64,000 bases of DNA from Bdellovibrionales bacterium (GCA_965200875.1 OZ241456.1:1561774-1625773), one strand, 5' to 3'; positions 21,988 to 50,767 are shown, numbered from the stretch's first letter. The notes: generated by a model not told the origin, from the sequence alone. Numbers and translations are program-made.

Positions 21988-22058
21988 GCCTGTGAAAAAG
22001 GTGTTTTATACAACTAAAAGCCAAGTTGTTGGCTTTTAGTCCCGTGAAAACGGAAATC
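21988..22058. repeat. Family-A repeat, half copy, between the convergent recA and tadA genes
   Basis: CCTGTGAAAAAGGTGTTTTATACAA, then hairpin CTAAAAGCCAA-GTTG-TTGGCTTTTAG, then CCGT-GAAA-ACGG. It overlaps the last 7 codons and the stop of tadA. Confidence 0.85.
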
Positions 22059-28672: not shown

Positions 28673-31453
28673 CTAAGCTGATTTTTTGACTTTTAAAAGC
28701 TTGTTTATAATTTCATGAACTTCTTGGCCTGTTTCATCCTGAGAAACAAAAAAACGCCAAATTCCATTTTCTTTATCTTGGTTAACAGCTTTTATCCAAA
28801 GGTCCATGTAATCCCATTTGGATTCATCCTTTGAGTTTTTCTTTCCTTTGACCTCCAGAACCATAAAGCTTTTATCCGAAAGCCTGATGATAAAATCAGG
28901 GGTATAGTTGTGTAAAACTCCATTATGAATATAATTTATTTCAAAACCCAAGTGATCATTTTTCACCCATGCTTCAACATGGGGGTTTTCGTCCAAGGCT
29001 TTTGCGTGGGCAAGCTCCCAAGTGCTATCCACAACAGTGCGATTGATATGTGTCTTCTTGAAAATTCCTGTTCTTTTTCCAGTGCGCCAATTTAAAGACT
29101 CTTTTGTTGAGCGGTATTTTGGATTTCTGTAAATGACAAAAAACTCTTTTTGATTTTGATGAGTAATGGCAGAAAGAACTTTTCTTACAATTTGCTCCAT
29201 ACCCATCATAACAGCAATTTTTCTTTTTGTTTTGTCTGCTTGAAAAGATTTTGGTTCTATTTGAAACTTATCAGAGTTTAAAAAGTCTTCTATAATTTTA
29301 AGCAACTGCGAAAGCGCAAAGTCCCGGTTCACTTTCTTTTTCCATTCCAAGTTTATCTGATCATAAATATTGAGGGCAGTGGTGAAAAAAAGTGTCTGTA
29401 TGCGAGTGTCCTGTTCTTTAAGAAGTTTCTCCATATCTATTGGTTTGATTTTTTCATAATCCGGTTCGCCATTTATTTCCGGAGCCATATCAACAAGCTT
29501 TCTGATTTCACTGATTTTTAAAGGCTTCACTTTAGTGAAATCAACTTTTAAAACAGGATTCAGCTCAAGATCAATCCTCTCCACATCTGGATAGGTGATT
29601 TTATATTTTTCTTTTTCAGGATCTGGAAAAATCGGCCACTTAGGCGAAACAGGCCGGGGATTACCTCCCTCTGCTTCTTCCTGAGGGATAAAAGAAAAAG
29701 GAATACCAAAAATATTCACATACTCCGGATCAAAAAATCCTTTATCGTTTAACTCATAAGAGGTTCGTCTTAAACCTCTCCCTACAATTTGTTCACATAA
29801 AAGCTGACTGGAAAAAGCTCTCAAACCCATAATATGGGTTACAGTTTGGCAATTCCAACCCTCAGTGAGCATAGCGACAGAAATAATATGTCTCAGCTGT
29901 TCCCCAGGTTTACCGATTTGTCCGGCGGTGTTCACCTTATCCCTTAACTCGGTCTCTTCTGCAAGCTTTGCTTTGTTCTGGCCTTTTCTGTTAGGAAAAT
30001 CTAAATCCGAATAAATAAGGGCAGTTTTGTCCTCTTTGCAAAGTTCAGGAATGGTCATTCTTTTTTTATCAAACATATACTTGATTCTATCCGCTGTTTC
30101 TTTTCTGTTTGTTACAGAGATCATAACCGGCGGAACTTGCATTTTGTTTGTCTGCCAATGTTTTAGGGTTTTGCTATAGTCATGGCCTAAAAGTAAATAA
30201 CCATTTCTTACCAACGAGGGAAGCATCTCCTCTGGTTTGGCTTTTCTGTTTAAATTGTCTTTCACATTTTCATTATCGTAAATGTGATACAGTTTTGATT
30301 TTAAATTTTTTGGATCTACTGGGCCATCATCCCTTACGACAAAGCGCGGAGTTTTTGTCAAGCCGGATTCCACGGCAGACATTAAACCAAAGTCACTTAC
30401 AATCCAATCAAACAAATCCTCTTTGTAAGAGGTCACGGCTTTTGTACCAGAGGGAGCAAAGGGGGTTGCTGAAAAGTCGAAACAACTTAAAATCCCCTTA
30501 TGTTTATGGATCCTGTCCAACCCTTTGATCCAACAAGTGGCCCTTTCTTTTTCTTTTGGATCAACCCCTGTCTGTTTTTCCTCACTTCTATGTCTCCAAG
30601 CATGATGAGCTTCATCGTTGATAACCAAAATTTTTCCGCCGGCTTTGGCTATATCTCCAAGAACATCCCTGAGATAGGCTTTCCCACTTTTAACACCTCT
30701 TTTATCGACGCTTTTTCTTTTTTGTAAGCTCTCCTCTGTATCCCACATAAGGGTATGCCAATTTTCGATATGAACCTTCCCCTGTCTCAGAAAGGGTAGC
30801 AAGTCATAAGGAACAATTTTTTTCTCTTCATAGTAATTTTCCGGTTTGTTAAAATCCAGCACAGAAAGACGGCTTTTGACTGTCAAGTTAGGGGCCACAA
30901 TAAACACATATTTTGAAAACCTTGGATCCTGTGGATAAGCTCTCTTGTTTAAAATTTGCCAAGCGATGGTCATGGCCATAACATAAGTTTTTCCTGTGCC
31001 AGTGGCCATTTTTACGCAAAGTCTTTCAAACTCTCCACCATCCTTTGGAATTTCAATCCCCACCTTCTCTTCAGCATGAGCTTCTTTTAACCAGATAAGA
31101 GTCTCCACAGCTTCTTTTTGGCAAAAGAAAAACTCATAACCCCGCCCGTTAGCTCCTTTTTTATTCCAAAACTCCAACAGTCTTTTGGTAATGCTTGTGA
31201 CTCCAGAGTATCCGGCTTCTCTCCATTTTTTCACCCTTGGGCGAATTTTATTCACTAAAGGCAGAGCAATAAAATCCCCTACTGACTGATATTTTTTGTC
31301 GGATGAAGCAATCACATAGCCCGCAGGTCGCCTGCCCTCTTTTATAAAATGCTTACCCCTTGTTCGCTCAAAATCCCAATGTTGTTTTGGCTCTTCAAAC
31401 GGAGAGTTGATAATCAGCTGATCAATTTTTTCTTTAAACTCTGGTCTACTCAT
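28673..31453 (-). CDS. res: Type III restriction enzyme, Res subunit (SF2 helicase plus C-terminal PD-(D/E)XK nuclease)
   Basis: Walker A MATGTGKT, DEAH box VINDEAHH, helicase motif VI QIVGRGLRR, and C-terminal YTPDFIIRL...LEVKGKK. Confidence 0.85.
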   Translation of the reverse strand: MSRPEFKEKIDQLIINSPFEEPKQHWDFERTRGKHFIKEGRRPAGYVIASSDKKYQSVGDFIALPLVNKIRPRVKKWREAGYSGVTSITKRLLEFWNKKGANGRGYEFFFCQKEAVETLIWLKEAHAEEKVGIEIPKDGGEFERLCVKMATGTGKTYVMAMTIAWQILNKRAYPQDPRFSKYVFIVAPNLTVKSRLSVLDFNKPENYYEEKKIVPYDLLPFLRQGKVHIENWHTLMWDTEESLQKRKSVDKRGVKSGKAYLRDVLGDIAKAGGKILVINDEAHHAWRHRSEEKQTGVDPKEKERATCWIKGLDRIHKHKGILSCFDFSATPFAPSGTKAVTSYKEDLFDWIVSDFGLMSAVESGLTKTPRFVVRDDGPVDPKNLKSKLYHIYDNENVKDNLNRKAKPEEMLPSLVRNGYLLLGHDYSKTLKHWQTNKMQVPPVMISVTNRKETADRIKYMFDKKRMTIPELCKEDKTALIYSDLDFPNRKGQNKAKLAEETELRDKVNTAGQIGKPGEQLRHIISVAMLTEGWNCQTVTHIMGLRAFSSQLLCEQIVGRGLRRTSYELNDKGFFDPEYVNIFGIPFSFIPQEEAEGGNPRPVSPKWPIFPDPEKEKYKITYPDVERIDLELNPVLKVDFTKVKPLKISEIRKLVDMAPEINGEPDYEKIKPIDMEKLLKEQDTRIQTLFFTTALNIYDQINLEWKKKVNRDFALSQLLKIIEDFLNSDKFQIEPKSFQADKTKRKIAVMMGMEQIVRKVLSAITHQNQKEFFVIYRNPKYRSTKESLNWRTGKRTGIFKKTHINRTVVDSTWELAHAKALDENPHVEAWVKNDHLGFEINYIHNGVLHNYTPDFIIRLSDKSFMVLEVKGKKNSKDESKWDYMDLWIKAVNQDKENGIWRFFVSQDETGQEVHEIINKLLKVKKSA

Positions 31454-31956: not shown

Positions 31957-34620
31957 TTAAGAAACATTACTCTGTTTCTTAGACCCTTTAATTTTTTGGT
32001 TTGGAAAGTCCAAAATTTTTAAGGATTCGATACCTCGGTCATCAATAATTTTAACAGCGATTTTTTTATTTTTACCTTTTTTGAAAGGGAGGGAGACTGT
32101 CCCTCTGTATTTTTCTATAAGGCTTTGGTCTATTTCTGATTTCAAGCTTTTAGCGAGCTTTGCAAAGCCACCTTTTTTGCTCTCCATAGGGAAAAACACC
32201 TGCCTTGGAAATAAAGCCTCTCCGTCATAATCCGTATCCAAAACCCACATCGCGATTTTGTTTTTCCCACCGGATTCAATTTGATTGGTAGCGGGATTAT
32301 AGTAATCAAAGCCCTGCACTTCCACAATATACTCATCTTTTTTAGAGTTGTTTTTTACTTCCACATCGGGAGAACCTACAAGCCAAAAACTTTCTTTGGA
32401 TGATGATTTTTTCTTCAAATCAGAAGTTTGCAAATCCATATTCATTTCAATTTTAATAGCTTTTGTTCTGCCTGATTTATAGCCATCGATAAGACGACTT
32501 GCCTCCGGATCAAAACGAAAAGAGGCAAAAACAAGAATATCCGGTTTTTCTTTTTTTACTTCCATTTCCTTTAAAGCTTGTTCCACCTGTCTTTTATCCA
32601 TAGGAGCATGTTCCGGGCCAAAGGAGATCACAACCGATCTTGGGTTTTTAGTCATCCCTTCTGCATGCAAAAACTTAAATCCGGGAAGCCTTTCCAATTG
32701 AGAGAAATCCATATCTGTTGCAATCCCATTTTTACATTTAATACCGGATCTTCTCACTTCATCCAGCCATTCATATTTAAAACTGATTTTTTTGCTTTGC
32801 CCCAAGCTTTGAACTGTTGGAGAGGGGACAGCCTCCACTGTAAAAGGGCCTGTCACACGGGCTTTTGTCTTGTCCTTCAAGGGCTTATCATACAAAACTT
32901 CCTCTTTAGCTGGTTCATTATTGGCAATAGAGCCTAAGGTGATATGAGGGACTGTTTTATATTGAAATCCTGAGCTTACTCCTTCGGTTTTATTTTTTAG
33001 TTTATAGTAGTCAAAGTGAGCTGTCATTAGCCTTTGCTTGGCAAGAGTTATGGCCACACGGGAGGTATCACAAGTGATCCACCGCCGGCCCCATTTTTCT
33101 GCCACATAAGCTGTCGTACCGCTCCCGCAAGTGGGATCTAAAACCAAGTCCCCCGGGTCTGTCGTCATAAGAAGGCAACGCTCAATAACTCTTGTAGATG
33201 TTTGTACAATATAGCTTTTATCTAATTCTGTAAAAGTATCAATCCAATTGTTATTAATAGCTTGAACAGGCAAATCATCAAAATATTGAATATAATTTAA
33301 CCAATTTTTTGTTCCATATAATCTTTTTTCTTTAGCTAATTTTTTCATTCCGTTAAAGTTGGTTTTCCATGAATATCCTTTAGAGGATGAATAATTTTTT
33401 CCTTTATATTTAAAATCGAAAGTGCAGCTTGGAGTGTATCCAGAAGAAAAGAGATTTGAAAGACGAAAGAGTTTAGCATTACTTGGAACTAAGGATAGGT
33501 CTTTTTTTTCATCTTTAGTTAGACTCCTTCTCTCTCCATGTGGAAACTCTACTTTTGTAAATGGTGTATCTTTTCCTTTATTTTTTTCAGTAAATAGCCT
33601 TTGAAATTTAATATTTTCAATATTTTTTGTGTACCATATTATGTAATCCGATATTTCTGGAATCAATTTTATTCCAAGAGGACTATTTGTTCTAAATGAT
33701 ATTTGTCGAACAAAATTCTCTCTTCCAAAAATCTCATCCATAAGGTTTCGGACCAGATGGACATTTTCATCAGAGATTTGCACAAAGCAGGAACCACTTT
33801 CAGTTAAAAGTTCTCTTGTGAACAAAAGTCTATCCCTTAAATAGGACAAATAGGAATGGATGCCAAGCTCCCAAGTATCTCTAAAAGCCTTAAGCATTTC
33901 AGGTTCCGCTGTCAGATCCTCATCCTTTTTGTCTTTGACATCCCTTTTATTGGTAAAGGGCTGAAAGTTAGAACCATATTTAATCCCGTAAGGGGGATCA
34001 ATATAGACACATTGGATTTGCCCTCCCATGCCTTCTTTTTCAAGTAAAGAGTTCATCACCAGAAGGGAGTCACCGGCAATTAGACGGTTTTTCCAAAGCT
34101 TTTCATGCCGATAAAAGTCGATGGCGGAAGAGTCAGGCAGTTTCCCCTCTTTTTTAAAAAGAGATAGCTGCTCATAGTTAGCCGTGTTGGTTTTTCTCAC
34201 TTGCTCTATCACAGCCCTTGGGTCAATTCTTTCATGAGTGTGGAGTGAAATGGTGGGAACCTCAAAAGAGGCTCGCTCCTTCTTACCTGCCCAGTTTAGG
34301 TAAGGCTCAGATAAGTTTTTCAGTTTAGTAAGTGCCTCTTTGGCCTTTGTATAGGCTGTTTTATAGGATTCTTCAGAGGCTTCTTTATCGGCTGATTCAG
34401 GAGATCCTGAAAGACCATTTTCGATAATTTTTTCGATCTTTTCTCTTTTGGAATCAAAGCACAATTCAGGGGAAATATGAGGATCAAAAGCATATTCTTT
34501 TTTCTCCTCCTTAAGTGGTTCTGTTTTACTATTAACCAAGCCAACAGAAGGATTGTTTTTCCGCTTTTTCTTCTTATGCTTAAACTGTGTAATATCCAAT
34601 TTTCGAGCTGGTTTTCCCAT
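31957..34620 (-). CDS. mod: Type III DNA methyltransferase, Mod subunit (beta-class N6-adenine/N4 family) with a long C-terminal extension
   Basis: Motif IV VYIDPPYG precedes motif I DPTCGSGTTAYVA (beta permutation). Adjacent to res. Confidence 0.85.
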   Translation of the reverse strand: MGKPARKLDITQFKHKKKKRKNNPSVGLVNSKTEPLKEEKKEYAFDPHISPELCFDSKREKIEKIIENGLSGSPESADKEASEESYKTAYTKAKEALTKLKNLSEPYLNWAGKKERASFEVPTISLHTHERIDPRAVIEQVRKTNTANYEQLSLFKKEGKLPDSSAIDFYRHEKLWKNRLIAGDSLLVMNSLLEKEGMGGQIQCVYIDPPYGIKYGSNFQPFTNKRDVKDKKDEDLTAEPEMLKAFRDTWELGIHSYLSYLRDRLLFTRELLTESGSCFVQISDENVHLVRNLMDEIFGRENFVRQISFRTNSPLGIKLIPEISDYIIWYTKNIENIKFQRLFTEKNKGKDTPFTKVEFPHGERRSLTKDEKKDLSLVPSNAKLFRLSNLFSSGYTPSCTFDFKYKGKNYSSSKGYSWKTNFNGMKKLAKEKRLYGTKNWLNYIQYFDDLPVQAINNNWIDTFTELDKSYIVQTSTRVIERCLLMTTDPGDLVLDPTCGSGTTAYVAEKWGRRWITCDTSRVAITLAKQRLMTAHFDYYKLKNKTEGVSSGFQYKTVPHITLGSIANNEPAKEEVLYDKPLKDKTKARVTGPFTVEAVPSPTVQSLGQSKKISFKYEWLDEVRRSGIKCKNGIATDMDFSQLERLPGFKFLHAEGMTKNPRSVVISFGPEHAPMDKRQVEQALKEMEVKKEKPDILVFASFRFDPEASRLIDGYKSGRTKAIKIEMNMDLQTSDLKKKSSSKESFWLVGSPDVEVKNNSKKDEYIVEVQGFDYYNPATNQIESGGKNKIAMWVLDTDYDGEALFPRQVFFPMESKKGGFAKLAKSLKSEIDQSLIEKYRGTVSLPFKKGKNKKIAVKIIDDRGIESLKILDFPNQKIKGSKKQSNVS

Positions 34621-34667: not shown

Positions 34668-34802
34668 TGTCTGCCGTGAAAAATCTCCAATGTTTTAATT
34701 ATCAACACTTTTTTTCATGTACTTTCCCAAGGAAACTGAAAGCCAAGTTGTTGGCTTTCAGTCCCGTGAAAACGGGAATCCAGGAAAATCACATACTTTT
34801 TC
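34668..34802. repeat. Family-A repeat, full-length diverged copy
   Basis: GCCGTGAAAAA ... both hairpins ... CTTTTTCAC. First of two tandemly arranged copies between the Type III R-M system and the next module. Confidence 0.9.
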
Positions 34803-34915
34803 ACTTGCGACTTTCTTATTCAAAACCCACAAATTAGCGTTTCGGAAAAGACAAAACAGGTCTTAAGAAAAACAAAAAAACCGGACTTTTGGTTCAGAAA
34901 AAACCTGAATAAATA

Positions 34916-35055
34916 GTCCGCCGTGAAAAACCCATAGTGCTTTAATTATCACACTCTTTTTTCAGGTACTTTCCCAAGGAAACTGAAAGCCAAGTTGTTG
35001 GCTTTCAGTCCCGTGAAAACGGGAATCCAGGAAAATCACATACTTTTTCACGGAC
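34916..35055. repeat. Family-A repeat, 140-bp reference copy
   Basis: Imperfect TIRs GTCCGCCGTGAAAAAC / CTTTTTCACGGAC. Internal hairpins ACTGAAAGCCAA-GTTG-TTGGCTTTCAGT and CCCGT-GAAA-ACGGG. Confidence 0.9.
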
Positions 35056-35242: not shown

Positions 35243-37657
35243 TTATTGCCAATTATACGACAGATGACCACTTTTTGTTTGTATCCTGTCATTTGATGCA
35301 TCTTTTGCAGATAATTTTTCTCCTGTTTTTGAGCAAATAAAATATTTTTCAAAATTTTCTATATCGTGAAAACAGGCTTTCATATCAGCAAGATTTTCGT
35401 TATATAAATTATCATGGGAAGCTTCATTTCCAAAAAATTGTGTACTTCTTAGATTTTCAATAGCTTGAATGACATTGGAGTCCATCTTTTTCTTTTTTAC
35501 TCTTGCTAACAAAGAGCTTAACAACTCTTCTAAAGTTCTTTTTTCATTAGTTGCACCTGACTTAAATTTCATTTCGGCCCCTAGATTTTCACAAATTTGT
35601 TTTAAAAGGTTTTCTACATATTTGCGCAGTTTATTTCCAAGAACATCTACATTTGATTCTTCAATCTGTTTTCTAATACTCTCTTTTAAATGTAATATTG
35701 GTTCATCCATGAAAGAACCAATATCATTATTCCACTTTATTTGCTTAATTAACCAACTTTTTGGCTTAACCAGAGAGGATAAATATTTAAACCACTCGTC
35801 TTCATGGGTTAAAACAAGAATTTGCCACTCAGAAAACTTGTTTACAAGAAGTTGACCGAATTGTTGCCTGTGATTTTTATCAAAACTGGATATAATATCA
35901 TCAAGTATAAAAAAATTATTTTTCTTGTTAAAAATTTTTACAGAAGACAGAAACAAACATAATCCCAGACAATTTATATAAGATTCACTCATAAGCATTT
36001 TTGGACTCTCCAAAGCAGTATTCCTAAAGTTTAAATGATATGATATTCCCACAAAGTCATCTTCATTATCCAATATAGGTTTTAATTTTATATCTTTGAT
36101 ATTGTCTGTAGGATTCATAAAAACGAATAACTGATTCATTTCAGTAGAAGTAGAGTCTAAAAACAACTCCATTTCATTTTTTTGGCAATCTGAAAAAGAC
36201 TTATATATTTCACTTACAGTTTTTATCTGAGAGCGAATTACTGTTTCCTCATTTTTTAACTTCTGAATATCCTGAAAACACGCTTTTGCCAAGTTGATTT
36301 TTTTTGCCATGTCAATTTTGGAAATACCTGATTCCTTTATAGAGTTTTTAAATAAATCAAGCGGACTTTTTATTTTATCAAAAGAAAAATCTTTTGCCTT
36401 ACAAATATATTCATCATAGTAATCTATCCTGTCAAAATTCAGCTCTCTTGAAAAAACTTTATACAACTCTCTGAAGCTTTTTAGTGAGTGTTCCAAGTAC
36501 TCTTTGGTGCTACTAAAATCAGAAGTACCCATACAACTTAATTCTCCAACTCTTTTTAGCATTTCACCTGTTTCTCTGATACCTTCTTCTATGTTGTTCT
36601 TATTTTGTTTTAAAACTTCTATTTCATCCTCTAAAGTTTGTAATACATCCAATCTTTCTTTTATCGAATTTAAAAGCTCTTCTGCTGGTATATCCTGCAA
36701 ACATAAAGGACATTTGTCCTTTTCATCTAGGATTTTTGTTTTAATAATATGCTCTGCATTTTTAAGAAGAGGTTTTATTTTAATGCCTTTTAGTTTTTGT
36801 TTATCTTCAAAAATTTTCTTAAAGGAGTTTTGGAAAATACTTAAGTGTTCAAGGAGCTGATTAAAGACAGACTCTTTTGCTTTAATGTTTGATAGCTCTT
36901 TTGTTATATCAGTTTTTAGCTGTAATTTTGGATCAGGTTTTTCTTTTGCAAGTTCTTTTTCCAATTTTTTAAAAGATTCCCAGGAATTGATATCAAATCC
37001 AAGATTTAATTCTTTAATCATAGAGTGAATTGTTGAAAAAAATTGCTCCTCTGTATTTATGTTTGTATTTATAACTTTCAGTAAGTCTGCTTGTTTGGAT
37101 GATATTTGACTGTCAAAGCTTTTTGTTTTGAGAGTTCTCTTTAAAGAATTTACTGATTTTTTTAACACTTCTTTTGTTTTCTTCACTTCTGAGTAACCAA
37201 TTAAGTTGGATATATCTGATAGCCTTTCTGATTTTGTGGAAATAATAAATTTTGTCAACTCATCACTACGAATCATTAAGTTTTCCATCTGAGATTGATT
37301 CAAATAGTTTTTAAAAGAATCTTTATTGTTGGAATGTCTGGACACAAAGCGATTGTTTTTTGTTTCCAATGTTTTTTTTGAATTTAAGGGGGAGTTAGAA
37401 AACTCCACTTCCACCTGACAAATATCTTGGTTATTTAGCTCTTTATTGCGGATGCCGGCATTTTTAGGTATTTCTTCTCCTTTTAAGTGTGATATTTTAT
37501 CATACAAAAACCATTCAATACTGTCAGTTATAGTGCTTTTTCCTGTTCCATTATCTCCATATAACAAAAAGGATTGCTTTTTAAGAGAGATATCTAAATC
37601 TTTTTTTACCCCTCTAAAACCTTTTATTGTTATTTTTTGTATTTCATTTCTCTGCAT
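35243..37657 (-). CDS. PrrC/RloC-family (AAA_13-like) ABC ATPase with a coiled-coil CxxC zinc hook and a HEPN-like C-terminal domain; putative anticodon nuclease
   Basis: Walker A GDNGTGKST, about 400 aa of K/E/L-rich coiled-coil-like sequence containing CPLC (36710-36721), signature-like MSESYINCLGL, Walker B FFILDDIISSFD, LTHE, and a tail with LRKYVE ... LRSTQFFGNEASH. Confidence 0.6.
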   Translation of the reverse strand: MQRNEIQKITIKGFRGVKKDLDISLKKQSFLLYGDNGTGKSTITDSIEWFLYDKISHLKGEEIPKNAGIRNKELNNQDICQVEVEFSNSPLNSKKTLETKNNRFVSRHSNNKDSFKNYLNQSQMENLMIRSDELTKFIISTKSERLSDISNLIGYSEVKKTKEVLKKSVNSLKRTLKTKSFDSQISSKQADLLKVINTNINTEEQFFSTIHSMIKELNLGFDINSWESFKKLEKELAKEKPDPKLQLKTDITKELSNIKAKESVFNQLLEHLSIFQNSFKKIFEDKQKLKGIKIKPLLKNAEHIIKTKILDEKDKCPLCLQDIPAEELLNSIKERLDVLQTLEDEIEVLKQNKNNIEEGIRETGEMLKRVGELSCMGTSDFSSTKEYLEHSLKSFRELYKVFSRELNFDRIDYYDEYICKAKDFSFDKIKSPLDLFKNSIKESGISKIDMAKKINLAKACFQDIQKLKNEETVIRSQIKTVSEIYKSFSDCQKNEMELFLDSTSTEMNQLFVFMNPTDNIKDIKLKPILDNEDDFVGISYHLNFRNTALESPKMLMSESYINCLGLCLFLSSVKIFNKKNNFFILDDIISSFDKNHRQQFGQLLVNKFSEWQILVLTHEDEWFKYLSSLVKPKSWLIKQIKWNNDIGSFMDEPILHLKESIRKQIEESNVDVLGNKLRKYVENLLKQICENLGAEMKFKSGATNEKRTLEELLSSLLARVKKKKMDSNVIQAIENLRSTQFFGNEASHDNLYNENLADMKACFHDIENFEKYFICSKTGEKLSAKDASNDRIQTKSGHLSYNWQ

Positions 37658-37850
37658 TGTTTTTACTCCGTATTTCATCAAGAGCATTGGAAATATTTGT
37701 GGATGACAAATTACCCTTATTATGAAGACTTATTATAATATCAATAATTTCCGGGCAGGAGTATTGGTCTTTATCTTCATTTAATTTCTTAAAAAAAGAT
37801 TTAATCAGCTCTGCCCCAGTTTTTGGTTTTTTATTGTTTTCTTCACTCAT
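37644..37850 (-). CDS. 68-aa hypothetical protein, translationally coupled on both sides
   Basis: Its ATG at 37850 overlaps the upstream TGA (ATGAGTGA). Its stop at 37644 overlaps the ATPase ATG at 37657. No family recognised. Confidence 0.5.
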   Translation of the reverse strand: MSEENNKKPKTGAELIKSFFKKLNEDKDQYSCPEIIDIIISLHNKGNLSSTNISNALDEIRSKNNAEK

Positions 37851-38292
37851 AAAAGCTCCAATCAATATCGAAGTGATTTTCCGGCACATCAGATAAATCC
37901 GGAAAACCAGATTTGTTGTTGCAAATAGGGTAACAGCCGTATTTTTTTAAAAAATCCAAAATAAAAAAACTTTCCAAATCTTCAACAGACTTTTTCCAGA
38001 TAGAACTTAAAGAGCTGAAGTTTAAATATGTAAAATACACTTTTGATTTTTTTTGATAATTAAACAAACCTTTGTTATTTGAAGCTCCTGTTAGATGATC
38101 TTTAAACCTAGATTTTATACTGTTTGTTTTTTTTTCGCTCATGCCAATATAGATCAACCTTGAGCTTTTGAAAGGATAAGGTATTTTGTAGTCTTTACTT
38201 TTTAGAAAATAAAGCCCGATGGCTTTATCCTCAATAAGAGAAATTTCTGTATGAGTTAACTCTGTTAAAGCCGGAAAATTTATTTTATACAA
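37843..38292 (-). CDS. GIY-YIG nuclease domain protein
   Basis: GLYFL (GIY), LIYIGMSE (YIG), SRFKDH (Arg), and EDLESFFILDFLKKYGCYPICN (Glu ... Asn) in the canonical order and spacing. TTG start. Confidence 0.55.
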   Translation of the reverse strand: MYKINFPALTELTHTEISLIEDKAIGLYFLKSKDYKIPYPFKSSRLIYIGMSEKKTNSIKSRFKDHLTGASNNKGLFNYQKKSKVYFTYLNFSSLSSIWKKSVEDLESFFILDFLKKYGCYPICNNKSGFPDLSDVPENHFDIDWSFYE

Positions 38293-38310
38293 TTATAATA
38301 ATCCTTATTT

Positions 38311-38514
38311 TTATAGCTTCTTATATCTATATTTGTTTTTGATATTTGCACTAAAGTATTTGCCATGTGATTCTGCATTCATTAAGTTCGTATGTTCGTC
38401 TTTTGGCACATCAAAATATTGATAAACACTTCCATCTTTAAACTCTATTTCTAAAACTTGTTCTTCATGTCCTATTGATTCCAAGTTTGAAGATTCCACT
38501 TGTTGTCTTTGCAT
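38311..38514 (-). CDS. KTSC domain protein
   Basis: VESSNLESIGH...LEIEFKDGSVYQYFDVP...SHGKYFSANIKNKYRY matches the KTSC-domain pattern. AGGAGG RBS 7 nt before the ATG at 38514. Confidence 0.65.
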   Translation of the reverse strand: MQRQQVESSNLESIGHEEQVLEIEFKDGSVYQYFDVPKDEHTNLMNAESHGKYFSANIKNKYRYKKL

Positions 38515-38980
38515 CTTTATACCTCCTTCATTTGCGATAACCAATTATCTTTATTATTAATTTAAACATTATTTTTCTTTAATACTTTTAATAAATCCCT
38601 CTGTATCAAAATCAATTCATTTGAAATGGTAGACTGTTTTTAATTCATAATATTACCTCCTAAAGTTTTATTTACACTTTTTTTTTCACTTTGAACAAAT
38701 AGCGTTATTCTCAGTAAAATTTTGTCGTAAAAGATGTTTTTTCTGGATTTCCTGCTTTCATGTGAAGACAGGAGATTTTAAATTCCTCGTTTCAGTAAAA
38801 GTAAAGAGCAAACAAATAAAAGATATGTATTTTTTATTTCTGAATTTTGAAAAACTCTTTCTTTGTATATTTTTTAAACTGTTACTGTTTCAGTTATTGT
38901 TTTTCCTTTTTCATGTAGAGTTTAAACAATTTCTAAAGAAGTTTCCAAGGAAAAAGCTGTTAACACATTTGAACATTTAC

Positions 38981-39012: not shown

Positions 39013-40068
39013 TTAGTCACCACTCTTAAGTTTTTTAATTTCTTCTTCGGAAAGCCCCGTGCCTTTGCAAAGAACATGCAAATCCACTCCAGTTTTAAGT
39101 AATTTTGCAATCAGCTCTTTTTGACCTTCCTGACGGCCTTGTTGCATGCCTTGTTGCATACCTTCCTGTATACCTTCCTGCCGGCCTTGTTGCATGCCTT
39201 GTTGCATACCTTCCTGTATACCTTCCTGCCGGCCTTGTTGCATACCTTCCTGTATACCTTCCTGACGGCCTTGTTGCATGCCTTGTTGCATGCCTTGTTG
39301 CCTAGCTTCATCATACGAAGATTTTAATAATGGCATCATAATTCTTCCCTCCTCTTTCACTGTGGCTTGTTCAATCTCTTTTACAATCTCCCAATTAAAT
39401 GCTGGATCATATCGCCGTATATAATCTACTGCTCGACCGATCAATGCCTCTCGCTCACTGGAACTAAGACCCTGACCTATCGTAAAAAGCTCCTTCACTT
39501 TTGATTCATCAAGTCGCCAGATATGTTTTAGAATATACAAAATAGGACGAGTTGTCAAATCCCTGGCCTCCTTTGACACATCTAAAGACTGAATATTCAA
39601 GACCCGCGGACGAAAATTCAACACATTATCTGCAAATCTCTCTTTTAATTCACCTTGGAAATTATACAGGTACTCGTGAAAATCAAGAGGCCATTTACCT
39701 GTCTTTGTTGCACTCTGGTTAATAAACACAGGGAGAATAGGATTTCGTGTATCTTGATAAATCCCTACCTGATATATTAAAAACTGTCTCATCAAATCTT
39801 GGTCGTATTGGCTTTTGTGTTCCATTAAGAATAATATTCTAGCAGGTTTTTGAGAGCTTTTAAGCAGAGCTGAAACCAAGAGGTCCATGCGTTTTTCTTT
39901 TGCGGATTTGTCAATAAAAGTTGTGGCTTCTGTTTTAAGGGTGTTCCAATCAAAAAGTTTCATTTCCTCTTTTGAGAGAACGAGGCTTAGGATATCCACA
40001 CAATACTTGGTTTGTGAGTAAACCTCTTTGAATAAATGATCATGTAAAAAATTTCTTTTTGTTTTCAT
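39013..40068 (-). CDS. Rpn family recombination-promoting nuclease / putative transposase (PD-(D/E)XK, Transposase_31-like)
   Basis: N-terminal FKEVYS..., a D...E-x-K core (RMDLLVSA...ILFLMEHKS), a C-terminal Q/G/M-rich repeat block, and an HTH-like tail GTGLSEEEIKKL. Confidence 0.7.
   Translation of the reverse strand: MKTKRNFLHDHLFKEVYSQTKYCVDILSLVLSKEEMKLFDWNTLKTEATTFIDKSAKEKRMDLLVSALLKSSQKPARILFLMEHKSQYDQDLMRQFLIYQVGIYQDTRNPILPVFINQSATKTGKWPLDFHEYLYNFQGELKERFADNVLNFRPRVLNIQSLDVSKEARDLTTRPILYILKHIWRLDESKVKELFTIGQGLSSSEREALIGRAVDYIRRYDPAFNWEIVKEIEQATVKEEGRIMMPLLKSSYDEARQQGMQQGMQQGRQEGIQEGMQQGRQEGIQEGMQQGMQQGRQEGIQEGMQQGMQQGRQEGQKELIAKLLKTGVDLHVLCKGTGLSEEEIKKLKSGD
39125..39304. repeat. Coding tandem repeat, 15 x 12 nt with 48-nt higher order, inside the Rpn gene
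   Basis: Units of the form CCTTSYTGNNNN (for example CCTTCCTGACGG, CCTTGTTGCATG, CCTTCCTGTATA) encoding QQGM/QEGI/RQEG tetrapeptides. Confidence 0.9.
39326..39350. repeat. 25-bp perfect direct repeat, copy 2, inside the Rpn gene at the N-domain / C-domain junction
   Basis: Identical to 38981-39005. On the coding strand it reads AGGGAAGAATTATGATGCCATTATT, preceded by AGG so that the SD-like AGGAGGG sits 7 nt before the first ATG of an ATGATG pair. Confidence 0.95.
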
Positions 40069-40123: not shown

Positions 40124-42292
40124 CTATTTTAATCTTTTTTCTGCTAATCTTTGGTTTTGTATAGAAAAACCTAATAGACTAGCAATTTTTTGTTTCTTCT
40201 TATATTTAATAGGGTGCATATAAATATATTGTGCCACTATATGCTTTAAAAGACATATAGCCTGAGTATTTTTTTCATCCTGTAGCTCTTTATACAGAAT
40301 CCTGATTCTATCAACATCTAAATCTTTTTTATGCCAAGTATGAATATACAAATTAATTAACTTGGAAGCCACTGTGTTACTCTCTGTGTTTACAGAGTTA
40401 GCAATATCAACAATTTTATAGTATCCTATAGAGTGTATAATTTTGTGTAACCATCCCCATAAAATACCATAAGACATCTGATCCACTATCACTTTACTGA
40501 TTTGTTCTATTTTCTCTGGAGATGATTCTTTTTTGGAAATTTGTTCCAATCTAGATTGGATAAACTTTTCAATTATCGTTCTTTCATTTAACATGAATTC
40601 CATAAAACTTTTTAATAATCTCAATCCGACATTTTGAGCTTCTTTAAATAAAATTTTTAACTTTTCTTTTTCCAATGATCCGTATTGATTTCTAAGAATC
40701 TGTCCAATTATTTCCATCGTTCTTGCAGATTTTTTAATTTCAATTAAAGTGCTATTTTCAGTGTTCATCTGTTCTGCGTCAGTATCATTCGTAGAGCGTT
40801 GTTTATCTTTGATTTCCAATTCTTTACTTCGTTCTTTTTCTACACTATGAGTAGATCCAGGTAATGTAATATTATTAAAAATACTATGCAGTTCTTTGAT
40901 AAATCCTTTTTCATCCCCTGATAAAGACGCTTCCTTATATTGGCTAAATATATTATGAGTATAATCAGTAATATTTTCTATTAAATTTTTATCTTTTGTA
41001 TGATGAGTGATAAAAACTAAAATATTAGCACTGTCTTTTTGATACACTTTAGATATTAATTTATTAATTACTTCTTTTTTGTTGTTAATATTTTCTGCAA
41101 TATACTTGGCAACAAAATAATAATATATATATATGTATCCAAAATTGTATAAATTATTTTTCTCTCTTAATATATTTGCACTTACTAAAATTTCTGAAAA
41201 ATTGCGCCCGCGAGGTACAATAAACTTTTTCCCATATTTTTTTAAAAAATCCTGTAATTGAGTATCGGAGATATTTCTTACATTATTGTCAAACATCCAA
41301 TACGCAAGGTGTGTAAGGAAATTAAAATAAGAGTCTATCTCTTCTACTATAATATGTATTTTAGAGAGTGATATAGTTATCATTGCTTGATAACAATGAC
41401 CATAAGAGGTTTGTTGTAAGTCTTGATTGGGACTTATCAGCTCAATAGAATTAAAAATAGATAAAATAAAAAAAGGGTAGCTTGGAACAATATTATGACC
41501 AATAATAATGTTAATAGAACTAGTGCATTGATCCAATCTGTTTAAATGCTGTTTGTTTTGATAATCAAAATCTGTATCTTCATGTAGGGAGATACACTTT
41601 TTGATAAGTTCTTCTCTTTTTTTATGTCCAAAAACTAATATTGAATAGCTTTTAAAATATTTATATTTTGATTTTTCAGATGGTATATTTGTTAATTGAT
41701 TAGCTAAAAGAATTGCACCTTGAAAATGATCTCGAATGGATAAAATAAATTTATCGAAATCTTCTTTGGTTATTTTCTTTCTTTCATCTACATCATCAAT
41801 AATTAAAATTCTTTTTTCTTTAGGAACATGGATCGACCCTGAAAATTGGTTTTTATATTCTTTTTGTGTAGCTTTTTTCAAAGCTCCAGATTTAGGAATT
41901 TTATTGCCTTCCATGAGGACTGGATAAAAACCGGCCTTCATATATCGCAAAAATAAAATATGAGCTAGGGCTGTCTTTCCACTTTGTTCTTCTCCATAAA
42001 GTAAAATATATGGATTATCAAATGTATTAATTGCTATTAATTTTTCAGAATTTATTTCGTTATGCTCTAAATTTACATCAGCAGTTTTGTCTTTTGTTGT
42101 AATGTCTGGATACACAAACTGTTTATCTAATGGTGTTGTATCAAAAGAGTTTTTCAGTAATTGATTTTGAAAATCTGGGTTTATTTCAGGTTTTGAGATT
42201 TTATCAACAACATGTTTTATACCTTCATATACATTTTTCCAAGCTGAGTCTTTATCATTCCATTTAGTTATAGCTTTGCCATCTTTTGGCAA
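40124..42292 (-). CDS. STAND/NLR-like P-loop NTPase, the C-terminal 722 codons of a TIR-NTPase gene split by an in-frame TAG
   Basis: Walker A GEEQSGKT and Walker B RILIIDDVDE. The ORF begins at an in-frame TTG whose product reads LPKDGKAITKW, the normal continuation of a TIR domain. Confidence 0.65.
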   Translation of the reverse strand: MPKDGKAITKWNDKDSAWKNVYEGIKHVVDKISKPEINPDFQNQLLKNSFDTTPLDKQFVYPDITTKDKTADVNLEHNEINSEKLIAINTFDNPYILLYGEEQSGKTALAHILFLRYMKAGFYPVLMEGNKIPKSGALKKATQKEYKNQFSGSIHVPKEKRILIIDDVDERKKITKEDFDKFILSIRDHFQGAILLANQLTNIPSEKSKYKYFKSYSILVFGHKKREELIKKCISLHEDTDFDYQNKQHLNRLDQCTSSINIIIGHNIVPSYPFFILSIFNSIELISPNQDLQQTSYGHCYQAMITISLSKIHIIVEEIDSYFNFLTHLAYWMFDNNVRNISDTQLQDFLKKYGKKFIVPRGRNFSEILVSANILREKNNLYNFGYIYIYYYFVAKYIAENINNKKEVINKLISKVYQKDSANILVFITHHTKDKNLIENITDYTHNIFSQYKEASLSGDEKGFIKELHSIFNNITLPGSTHSVEKERSKELEIKDKQRSTNDTDAEQMNTENSTLIEIKKSARTMEIIGQILRNQYGSLEKEKLKILFKEAQNVGLRLLKSFMEFMLNERTIIEKFIQSRLEQISKKESSPEKIEQISKVIVDQMSYGILWGWLHKIIHSIGYYKIVDIANSVNTESNTVASKLINLYIHTWHKKDLDVDRIRILYKELQDEKNTQAICLLKHIVAQYIYMHPIKYKKKQKIASLLGFSIQNQRLAEKRLK

Positions 42293-42322: not shown

Positions 42323-42631
42323 CTATGCACAGTCTCTTAAAATTACCGGAATCACAATAGTATTTTTTTTGTCTTTTAAATTTAAAGCAATATTCATCTC
42401 TTTCTTACAATTATTAGAAGCAAGGAAATCTGGGCTGAGTAATAACAAAATAATATGGGCTTCTTTCATTTTTTTTTCTATTACAGGATCCCATTCTTCA
42501 CCTGCTTGGATTTCTTTGTCTGACCAGTCAGATATTTTACCTTCATCTCTTAAAAGAGTAAGGTGTTTTTCTAAAGAGTCTTGATGTTTTGCATCTATAT
42601 GTGTATAGCTGTAAAATAAACGAATGTTCAT
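42323..42631 (-). CDS. TIR domain fragment (102 aa) ending at an in-frame amber codon
   Basis: LFYSYTHIDAKHQDSLEKHL...EAHIILLLLSPDFLASNNCKKEM...VIPVILRDCA-TAG matches the bacterial TIR pattern up to the usual C-D/P-W position. Confidence 0.7.
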   Translation of the reverse strand: MNIRLFYSYTHIDAKHQDSLEKHLTLLRDEGKISDWSDKEIQAGEEWDPVIEKKMKEAHIILLLLSPDFLASNNCKKEMNIALNLKDKKNTIVIPVILRDCA

Positions 42632-42833: not shown

Positions 42834-43427
42834 TTAGTCCCAGGTTGTTTTAGCCCAGCAAATACCAATGATTTTACCTTTGTATTTGTTTTCTCTTAGA
42901 AAGTCCGATATGGCCCGCAAATGTGATCCGGTGGTTATCACATCATCCAAAATATATAATATTTTAGGTTCTTTGTTTTTAAACCCTTTCCAAATATAAT
43001 TTTGCTTAAAAAATTCAGGGTTTCTTTCCCCGGAAAGATGAACAGACTCTTGATCCTCTTTTATTTCAACAGGCCATTCAACCAACCACCCTAGCAGTGA
43101 TTGTAAAAGTTCCCTAAATAAATCTTCAAATCTATTATTATATTCAGGATGAGATTTTGTTTTAGAACTTGGAACAGCAGTTAACACCCAACCCTTTGGG
43201 TTTGTTTTTAGTAACAGTTCAACATCTTCTTTAAATTGCTTAATAGCTTTTTCACGATATGACCATTCTGGCGTGCATCTTTTGGAAGGGGATTTTTTAA
43301 AATTCAAAATCAGAGAATTTGTTGGACCACCTTCATAGCCCGTACTGGATTTGTATTCTCTCGCATATACCCAAATATCGTCAGGTTTTATATGAGGTAA
43401 ATGTTGTTCTTTAAATTTATTCCACAC
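42834..43427 (-). CDS. Phosphoribosyltransferase (type I PRTase, ComF-like)
   Basis: PRPP-binding loop ILYILDDVITTGSHL. GTG start overlaps the DprA-like stop by 11 nt. Confidence 0.7.
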   Translation of the reverse strand: MWNKFKEQHLPHIKPDDIWVYAREYKSSTGYEGGPTNSLILNFKKSPSKRCTPEWSYREKAIKQFKEDVELLLKTNPKGWVLTAVPSSKTKSHPEYNNRFEDLFRELLQSLLGWLVEWPVEIKEDQESVHLSGERNPEFFKQNYIWKGFKNKEPKILYILDDVITTGSHLRAISDFLRENKYKGKIIGICWAKTTWD

Positions 43428-50014: not shown

Positions 50015-50767
50015 ATGCGTATTATCTTTTTTATGCTTTATTTTCTAAGTGTTTCATATACAGAAAATAGTAGTAGTTCTTGGGATAGTGTTGCAGACCA
50101 AGAAAAACCAAAGGAAAATACCCGAGACCGTAATACTTGTGAACAGAAAGAAGACAATTTAGAATTGAAACATAATAATACGCCCGTGCCTCTTAATTGC
50201 AGTTGTAAGTCGAAAGGTAATAACGAAACACTGGTTGAACAATGTTTCAACACATATATTTGCAAGGAAAAGTGTAAAGATTATATCAGCGATAATGCAA
50301 ACTTTTGTGATAACATTCCCAACAACAGGAACAATGAGAATGCTCTTTGCCAAAGAAGCTGTAATGAAGATCCTCCTAACTTCATGACACCATCTTCCGC
50401 AGTTTCCCAGGCTGTAAATAACTGTGATCAGAAAAATAGAAGAAAGCTACAAGACCAGTTAGTTGAAAACTGTCGGAGTAGAATAAACAACATTGAAAGA
50501 TCGCCACCTCATACTGGTGCGACATTGGTGTGTCCGGGTAGAGCCGGCTGTGAAAGGTATTGCCAAAGCAAGGCTCAGGAACAAATCAATGGTATGCGAA
50601 GCAATTGCGAAGTGAAAACTAAAGGTGGTTTCAGGCTGTGTGAGTACAATTTGAATAATCGGTTACGCCATGTTCTTCTACAAAATTCTGGCCAATTACC
50701 TCAGGTTTTCACGGGACTAAAAGCCAACAACTTGGCTTTCAGTTTCCAAGAGAGACCTTTCACATAA
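50015..50767 (+). CDS. Cysteine-rich secreted protein, unknown function
   Basis: GGGAGG RBS, a signal-like N-terminus, and many Cys residues scattered through the mature part (I did not make an exact count). The last ~21 codons are encoded by a family-A repeat. Confidence 0.45.
   Translation: MRIIFFMLYFLSVSYTENSSSSWDSVADQEKPKENTRDRNTCEQKEDNLELKHNNTPVPLNCSCKSKGNNETLVEQCFNTYICKEKCKDYISDNANFCDNIPNNRNNENALCQRSCNEDPPNFMTPSSAVSQAVNNCDQKNRRKLQDQLVENCRSRINNIERSPPHTGATLVCPGRAGCERYCQSKAQEQINGMRSNCEVKTKGGFRLCEYNLNNRLRHVLLQNSGQLPQVFTGLKANNLAFSFQERPFT

Follow-up and report, generated by a model that had tools for sequence, protein, structure and literature searches.

Systems of the Lamassu/ABC three-component type (ABC-3C, ABC standing for ATP-binding cassette; LmuA-LmuC-LmuB or DdmABC) encode an effector, a small middle component and an ATPase resembling structural maintenance of chromosomes (SMC) and Rad50 proteins, in that order. 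In the solved Lamassu complexes the effector LmuA carries a C-terminal domain for docking and oligomerisation, and the effectors listed for these systems are Cap4, Mrr, protease, Sir2, FMO, HNH, SMEK, lipase and others. Short LmuC is reported in the Lamassu literature to be helix-turn-helix (HTH)-like, and long-type LmuB combines a Walker B motif of the hhhhDD type with exactly one CxxC (bioRxiv 10.1101/2025.04.02.646746). In RloC a single polypeptide combines an ABC ATPase, a CxxC-bearing Rad50-like coiled coil and a C-terminal HEPN-type domain, and its triad reads Arg-x3-Glu-x36-52-(Ser)His (PMC2610378). A 2024 survey of 132 systems came across GIY-YIG in only three, each consisting of a single gene (bioRxiv 10.1101/2024.10.26.620412). 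Our analysis concerns a 64,000-nucleotide stretch of DNA from a Bdellovibrionales bacterium (GCA_965200875.1 OZ241456.1:1561774-1625773; hereafter the window), in which a GIY-YIG nuclease, a 68-aa protein and a LmuB-like ATPase with a predicted HEPN-like tail are encoded by consecutive, coupled genes. These three genes are the core of a module, unnamed so far, that is most likely of the SMC-based three-component type and a variant of Lamassu/ABC-3C.

An earlier note on this DNA had described a translationally coupled four-gene cassette ending in an RloC/PrrC-like ATPase and beginning with a KTSC gene. All four open reading frames (ORFs) are present on the minus strand at the positions it gave, with operon-type junctions, and every motif that it quoted from the ATPase and from the GIY-YIG protein (GLYF, YIGMS, SRFKDH) is found in the translated products. 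The features of the locus are:

38311..38514, minus: KTSC-domain protein, 67 aa from ATG 38514 (77 aa from the alternative TTG 38544)
37843..38292, minus: GIY-YIG nuclease, stand-alone and minimal, 149 aa, TTG start
37644..37850, minus: middle component, in the LmuC position, 68 aa, ATG 37850
35243..37657, minus: SMC/Rad50-type coiled-coil ABC ATPase, LmuB-like, with a predicted C-terminal HEPN-like domain, 804 aa, ATG 37657
37532..37558, minus: Walker A of the ATPase, GDNGTGKST, residues 34-42, with the catalytic Lys40; invariant
36701..36712, minus: CPLC, putative zinc hook, residues 316-319; all four residues invariant
35879..35992, minus: ABC signature through Walker B/D-loop, MSESYINCLGL at residues 556-566 and FFILDDIISSFD at residues 582-593
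35801..35812, minus: H-loop LTHE, residues 616-619; T617, H618 and E619 invariant
35342..35710, minus: HEPN-like four-helix domain, about residues 650-772, predicted from AlphaFold2 (AF2) and Foldseek
35246..35341, minus: C-terminal segment at the zinc-ribbon position, residues 773-804, from family alignments

A conserved three-gene core

The genes of the cassette are closely packed. Eighteen nucleotides separate the KTSC stop codon (TAA, 38313-38311) from the TTG start of the nuclease gene at 38292, which is preceded by AAGGA as read from the sequence. The nuclease TGA (37845-37843) overlaps ATG 37850 of the 68-aa ORF inside ATGAGTGA, and the TGA of that ORF (37646-37644) lies within the ATPase ORF, an overlap of 14 nt with the ATPase ATG at 37657. 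The 804-, 68- and 149-aa products are identical in public gene calls.

A scan of 185,579 species genomes, with one genome per species, yielded 321 relatives of the ATPase, and 80 loci were kept for synteny, all ORFs of which were searched with profiles of the cassette proteins. The ATPase is present in all 80 loci, the middle protein stands directly upstream of it in 79, and the 149-aa nuclease is found in 77; two of the three misses are contig ends and the third (L071) is a real absence. In 74 of 77 loci the middle-protein ORF overlaps that of the ATPase, and the nuclease is never more than 14 nt from the middle protein in the 77 loci that have it. KTSC lies immediately 5' of the triad in about 6 of the 80 loci and is missing from most, including that of the closest relative (L001). 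The core of the system is three genes, encoding nuclease, middle protein and ATPase, and KTSC is facultative. The coupled cassette of the earlier note, and the co-occurrence of its nuclease and middle protein with homologues of the ATPase, are therefore borne out by the survey, whereas a fixed fourth gene is not.

Full-length homologues of the ATPase, about 805 aa long, number more than 240. The closest, at 62% and 56% identity, come from metagenome-assembled genomes of Bdellovibrionales, and the other loci are mostly from Bacteroidota, Nitrospirota and anammox Planctomycetota, with further phyla represented. From locus to locus, the pairwise identity values of each core protein track those of the other two (r = 0.79-0.87), and the nuclease is the best conserved of them, with a mean identity of 64% vs 45% for the middle protein and the ATPase. 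On two alphaproteobacterial plasmids a nuclease homologue is kept (E 1e-48 to 1e-51) in divergent orientation beside an ATPase that is 25% identical, so the link between nuclease and ATPase outlasts a change of orientation; the homologue from Aliiroseovarius is labelled by PGAP as a GIY-YIG nuclease family protein. Viral contigs gave one ATPase match among 2.9 million, which argues that the module is cellular and not phage-borne. The best explanation is a horizontally mobile module of the defence type.

The core proteins

The first 630 residues of the ATPase match Pfam SMC_N (5e-19), and the NCBIfam Rad50 and RecF models match it weakly. Across the family alignment the SES of the signature, the Walker B FFILDD (hhhhDD type), the SSFD D-loop and the THE of the H-loop are invariant. 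The best match in the defence libraries is the PADLOC LmuB model PDLC03859 (1.4e-24), which aligns over residues 6-628 and nearly its whole length, and LmuB is likewise the best defence-library match of all 20 ATPase family members searched. Two stretches with a strong hydrophobic period of 3.5 residues flank the CPLC, which itself lies in a break that has no such periodicity. Pfam Rad50_zn_hook stays below threshold, at 0.009 for the window protein and 4.6e-4 for the best family member; a CPxC is retained in distant homologues. The Rad50-type CxxC proposed by the earlier note is thus present and invariant in the family, and with FFILDD and this single CxxC the window ATPase has the two traits of long-type LmuB. 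On the strength of its sequence the ATPase is SMC/Rad50-type and LmuB-like.

The tail of the ATPase (residues 620-804) gave nothing meaningful by sequence against Pfam, PADLOC or the PDB, and the call of its fold rests on Foldseek, with weak E-values. Its AF2 model has a pLDDT of 83, and of its eleven best Foldseek matches in the PDB, nine have descriptions that name them as HEPN domains or as proteins with such a domain; a tenth, 2q00, is HEPN-T/Parep1 according to PMC3710099. The best HEPN match is 2hsb (probability 1.0, E 0.03, TMt 0.63), and others are 1wol, the HEPN toxins 7bxo/7ae6, Csm6 8jbb and 4nqf. The model therefore folds like a HEPN domain, as the earlier note had suspected. The motifs of the tail, LRKYVE at residues 677-682 and LRSTQFFGNEASH at residues 736-748, place R678-x3-E682-x3-K686 on helix 2, followed by an insert, and N744-x2-S747-H748 at the close of helix 3. 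These positions are those of the canonical HEPN layout of PMC3710099, a bundle of four helices in which an insert separates helix 2 from helix 3. The predicted arrangement of an R-x3-E plus a His is present and conserved in R678-x3-E682 and S747-H748. His748 and Asn744 are invariant; the Arg position of the Rx4-6H motif (743) is a Gly here and varies in the family. HEPN families listed as "H conserved, lacks R" exist (PMC3710099), and it is these that the tail resembles in its motifs.

The tail motifs persist beyond the loci that have the nuclease. Nearly all distant homologues without a nuclease gene keep the CPxC, the R-x3-E-x3-[KR] and the N-x3-H; one from Hymenobacter is missing the arginine of R-x3-E, yet has a full RNxxxxH. 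Because its motifs are kept where the nuclease gene is not found, the tail must have a function of its own. Most ATPase family members end in a CxxC...CxC zinc ribbon. In the window protein and in its relatives from Bdellovibrionales this ribbon is degenerate, with three of the four cysteines lost; the one left in the window protein is C775. DarT, encoded near a distant homologue, was considered as an alternative effector and ruled out, as it belongs to a separate DarT-NADAR pair.

The 149-aa protein is a genuine, divergent GIY-YIG nuclease with a complete catalytic set, in agreement with the earlier note. Its AF2 model (pLDDT 93) consists of one domain and has no extra domain. The top Foldseek matches of this model in the PDB are the GIY-YIG nucleases T4 EndoII and Hpy188I, with weak E-values, and those in BFVD are phage GIY-YIG endonucleases, with probabilities of 0.95-0.96. 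Matches to Pfam GIY-YIG models are below threshold but occur in 44 (GIY_YIG_2) and 35 of the 46 family members. A profile of the close family alone failed against the PDB; once broadened with distant relatives, it matched the UvrC GIY-YIG domain 1yd6 (E 2.7e-6), in an alignment that pairs YIG/Tyr48, Arg62, His66 and Glu107 with their UvrC counterparts. Tyr28, Tyr48, Arg62, His66, Glu107 and Asn125 are invariant or nearly so in the family, and the nuclease is probably catalytically active. The protein has only about 140 relatives in a profile search of 1.84 billion representatives, and no PADLOC model, LmuA included, matches it. It stands in the position of LmuA, and we predict that it is the DNase effector of the module.

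For the middle protein we predict three helices in an HTH-like arrangement, since its family profile matches the Myb/GARP DNA-binding domain of ARR10, which also has three helices (1irz, E 3.8e-4). Every distant ATPase homologue examined, the plasmid and archaeal ones included, has a small coupled partner of 58-79 aa.

Lamassu, RloC and SbcCD as models for the module

In its layout the locus corresponds closely to Lamassu/ABC-3C, with the order of effector, small middle component and SMC/Rad50-like ATPase, coupled genes, and recurrence of this arrangement in 77 of 80 loci. LmuB as the best defence-library match, the HTH-like character of the middle protein and the setting in a defence island are further points of likeness. 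Because of the operon layout and the hidden Markov model evidence, Lamassu/ABC-3C seems to fit better than RloC, and the three-component layout that the earlier note had offered as an alternative proves the better frame, from which the locus differs in the docking domain and the fused HEPN. The HEPN-like domain, which is joined to the ATPase together with a zinc ribbon in most members, has no counterpart in any described LmuB, and the middle protein has only 68 aa.

Several observations weigh against a Lamassu-type assignment. The similarity to LmuB is modest (85-105 bits across some 600 residues). Searched against the PDB, the full ATPase profile matched only heads of SMC and Rad50 proteins and a retron ATPase, and neither LmuB nor RloC; because no solved short-Lamassu LmuB is among these sequence matches, the relationship of the ATPase to LmuB is evidently distant. 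The middle protein matches no Pfam or PADLOC family and no LmuC model. The single-domain GIY-YIG protein has no C-terminal docking or oligomerisation domain of the kind carried by LmuA. Finally, more distant pairs of middle protein and ATPase occur without a GIY-YIG gene, and for this reason the nuclease may be an add-on and the tail of the ATPase the ancestral effector.

With these points taken into account, we favour, with moderate confidence, a Lamassu-like sensor-effector complex, in which an ATPase dimer and the middle component sense abnormal DNA and the GIY-YIG DNase is released or activated. A dimer of the Rad50/LmuB-like ATPase, joined by the CPLC zinc hook, would sense DNA that is aberrant or foreign, for example DNA ends or intermediates of replication. 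The 68-aa HTH-like protein may aid the binding of DNA by the ATPase and bridge the complex. The GIY-YIG nuclease would be the DNA-cutting effector, held inactive on the complex until ATP-dependent sensing or rearrangement frees it or switches it on. The HEPN-like tail probably either docks and regulates the nuclease, standing in for the LmuA adaptor that the module lacks, or is itself a further effector directed at RNA; one module may combine an RNase with a DNase, as the earlier note had envisaged. The defence function, the sensing of DNA, the sequestration and activation of the effector and any RNase activity are inferred.

A more far-reaching version of this model is tentative. Here a single Rad50-like zinc-hook sensor would control both a free-standing, minimal GIY-YIG DNase, docked without the Lamassu adaptor, and a built-in HEPN domain of the RNase type, whose active site would be non-canonical in having His and Asn and no Arg, and this widespread defence family would bridge systems of the Lamassu/SbcCD type and of the RloC type.

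It is somewhat more doubtful that the ATPase is a self-contained device of the RloC type, in which sensing of DNA damage or DNA ends switches on a HEPN RNase directed, for example, against tRNA, with the 68-aa protein as a regulator and the GIY-YIG nuclease as a clade-specific addition. A likeness of architecture is plain: the window ATPase is a single polypeptide of about 800 aa with the same domain order (ABC head, putative coiled coil with CxxC, second head half, HEPN-like domain with R-x3-E...S-H), the persistence of CPxC and the tail motifs in nearly all distant homologues without GIY-YIG, together with the full RNxxxxH of Hymenobacter, speaks for such a device, and restriction-modification (R-M) genes are frequent neighbours and adjoin the cassette, as they do some rloC genes. 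Membership of the PrrC/RloC family, as suggested in the earlier note, nevertheless has to be given up. Neither PrrC nor AAA_13 matches the window ATPase in Pfam or PADLOC, AAA_13 matches 4 of the 20 family members, and without exception LmuB matches best. PrrC activity requires the Arg of Rx4-6H (PMC3710099), a residue not conserved here, and the spacer from Glu to His is 65 residues vs the 36-52 of RloC (PMC2610378). Moreover, RloC has no conserved partner genes, whereas the window-type ATPase is always coupled to the middle protein and, in its clade, also to the GIY-YIG nuclease.

A genuine RloC-like AAA_13/PDC-S06 ATPase stands beside the triad in four genomes (L031:3038-5329, L039, L061 and L068), in which two zinc-hook ATPase systems thus co-occur. 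This neighbouring protein matches AAA_13 at 2.5e-112, PDC-S06 at 9e-139 and PrrC at 9e-12, and carries CLFCG as its hook, together with RRFLE...x36...FSH. Aligned with this protein, the window ATPase scores 28 bits in BLASTP, and hhalign aligns 80 columns at a probability of 62%, with the tails unaligned. The part common to both is the block of signature, Walker B and H-loop, which includes the Walker B/D-loop DDxISSxDxNH, a point that speaks for the RloC-type device to that extent. Judged by these comparisons, the likeness to RloC is one of architecture only and not of family membership.

An SbcCD or Mre11-Rad50-like processor of DNA ends or hairpins, in which the GIY-YIG nuclease replaces Mre11/SbcD and which cuts foreign DNA without killing the cell or serves repair, is unlikely. 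The cassette shares with SbcCD a coiled-coil ABC ATPase, here with a putative zinc hook, encoded beside a nuclease gene, with sensing of DNA ends likely; the Rad50-type hook, the SMC_N head, the weak Rad50 and RecF matches and the high conservation of the nuclease, as expected of an integral catalytic subunit, are in keeping with it, and Lamassu itself has been proposed in the Lamassu literature to be derived from SbcCD. Unlike SbcCD, however, the cassette has a GIY-YIG nuclease and not a phosphoesterase of the Mre11 type, a much shorter coiled coil, an added middle protein and a fused HEPN-like domain without SbcCD counterpart. Its patchy distribution (about 321 matches in the species genomes scanned) and its mobile, defence-linked context, in a low-GC island, on plasmids and beside R-M and defence genes, argue against housekeeping repair.

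That the four genes are adjacent by chance, or that KTSC is an obligatory fourth subunit, is highly improbable: the genes are tightly packed in the window and about 19 of the 80 loci have a KTSC or KTSC-like neighbour, but chance adjacency is excluded for a triad that recurs in 77 loci from many phyla, and KTSC is not obligatory since it is absent from most loci, L001 included.

We found no described system with these partners: the combination of GIY-YIG nuclease, middle protein and ATPase is absent from the defence libraries and the literature searched, which did not cover the original ABC-3C paper, and GIY-YIG is not in the effector lists of the Lamassu review and the 2025 survey (bioRxiv 10.1101/2025.04.02.646746). 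The known GIY-YIG defence systems PD-T4-3, PD-Lambda-1 and Uzume share the nuclease domain with the module but are one-gene systems (bioRxiv 10.1101/2024.10.26.620412). If functional, the module would make GIY-YIG a new class of effector in SMC-based immunity and would have a new architecture, in which the effector lacks a docking domain and the sensor has a fused HEPN domain. It would then be a naturally occurring case in which to test how sensors of the Lamassu-like kind retain their effectors and let them go, and whether a common logic underlies Lamassu and RloC, with the sensing of DNA damage or DNA ends coupled to the destruction of nucleic acid. The family is found in at least about 320 species-level genomes of many phyla, on plasmids and at BREX and R-M loci, and defence censuses probably miss it because PADLOC recognises only the ATPase, as LmuB-like, and not the nuclease or the middle protein.

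KTSC, neighbours and the surrounding island

The KTSC protein matches Pfam KTSC PF13619 above the cut-off (1.6e-22). The earlier note had its ORF and stop codon right and began it at TTG 38544; ATG 38514 is more likely to be the start, because AAGGAGG stands 7 nt 5' of it. KTSC has been called DNA-binding and occurs in other conflict systems that combine an ATPase with an endoDNase (PMC9503650, Aravind lab). We predict that the KTSC protein of the window is a facultative upstream accessory, a small DNA-binding domain. A 72-aa KTSC-like family, related to KTSC at an hhalign probability of 56% and E 1e-4, adjoins 13 of the 80 loci.

At other loci the recurrent neighbours of the triad are Type III methyltransferases (8 loci), Type I HsdS (7) and HsdR (4), OLD nucleases (5), RloC-like AAA_13 proteins (4) and Schlafen/AlbA-like proteins (4), and at least 25 of the 80 loci have one or more such R-M, OLD, RloC-like or Schlafen-like neighbours. 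This neighbourhood makes a defence role of the cassette likely. In loci from Nitrospirota, Brocadia and Bacteroidales an OLD-family ATPase-TOPRIM nuclease lies directly 5' of the triad (L005:3048-5021, L018:3426-5285, L007 and L014), and the gene between the two encodes KTSC or else a 98-aa protein of WYL-like appearance without a Pfam match (L005:5028-5324); OLD gene and triad may form a larger composite module. On plasmid pHTIA of Halorhabdus tiamatea (L085, 3799-6463) a distant pair of middle component and ATPase, with a similar tail and zinc ribbon and an embedded-gene arrangement, is found between pglX and pglZ in an annotated BREX-5 locus.

The cassette of the window is part of an island of low GC content (27-30% vs 37-40% around it), which also holds a Type III methyltransferase and Rpn, TIR-STAND and ShosT-like genes. 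The methyltransferase (31957-34620, PADLOC MTase_III 2e-158) starts 622 nt past the ATPase stop, in accord with the distance of about 600 bp at which the earlier note had placed a Type III system. A 926-aa ORF on the 3' side of it (28673-31453, minus), where Res is expected, is a putative Res, for which a PDB sequence search gave no match.

On the 5' side of the cassette there follow an Rpn-family nuclease, a TIR fragment with a STAND NTPase (DS8/PDC-S60) and a ShosT-like protein. The first of these is an Rpn/YhgA-like recombination-promoting nuclease (39013-40068, minus) with a run of QQGMQQGRQEGIQEG repeats, and its gene has a GC content of about 40% within an island of 27-29%. Next come a 722-aa STAND NTPase ORF and, on its 5' side, a 102-aa TIR ORF (40124-42292 and 42323-42631, minus), which jointly match positions 333-993 of the 994 of NCBIfam DS8_antiphage and 201-895 of the 906 of PADLOC PDC-S60; from these matches they are probably one TIR-STAND gene that has been split or truncated. 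The ShosT-like phosphoribosyltransferase protein (42834-43427, minus) matches PADLOC ShosT at 9e-24.

No RNA family was matched when 34.5-39.1 kb was scanned with Rfam, and a scan for promoters and terminators, with fewer sites than in shuffled sequence, was uninformative. Between the ATPase stop and the methyltransferase start there are two direct copies of a 136-nt element, 90% identical to each other (34669-34804 and 34916-35051), each of which holds the perfect palindrome ACTGAAAGCCAAGTTGTTGGCTTTCAGT. The palindrome occurs twice more in the window (22013-22040 and 50716-50743), where none is expected by chance, and the repeat looks like a dispersed element of the repetitive extragenic palindrome or miniature inverted-repeat transposable element (REP/MITE) kind.

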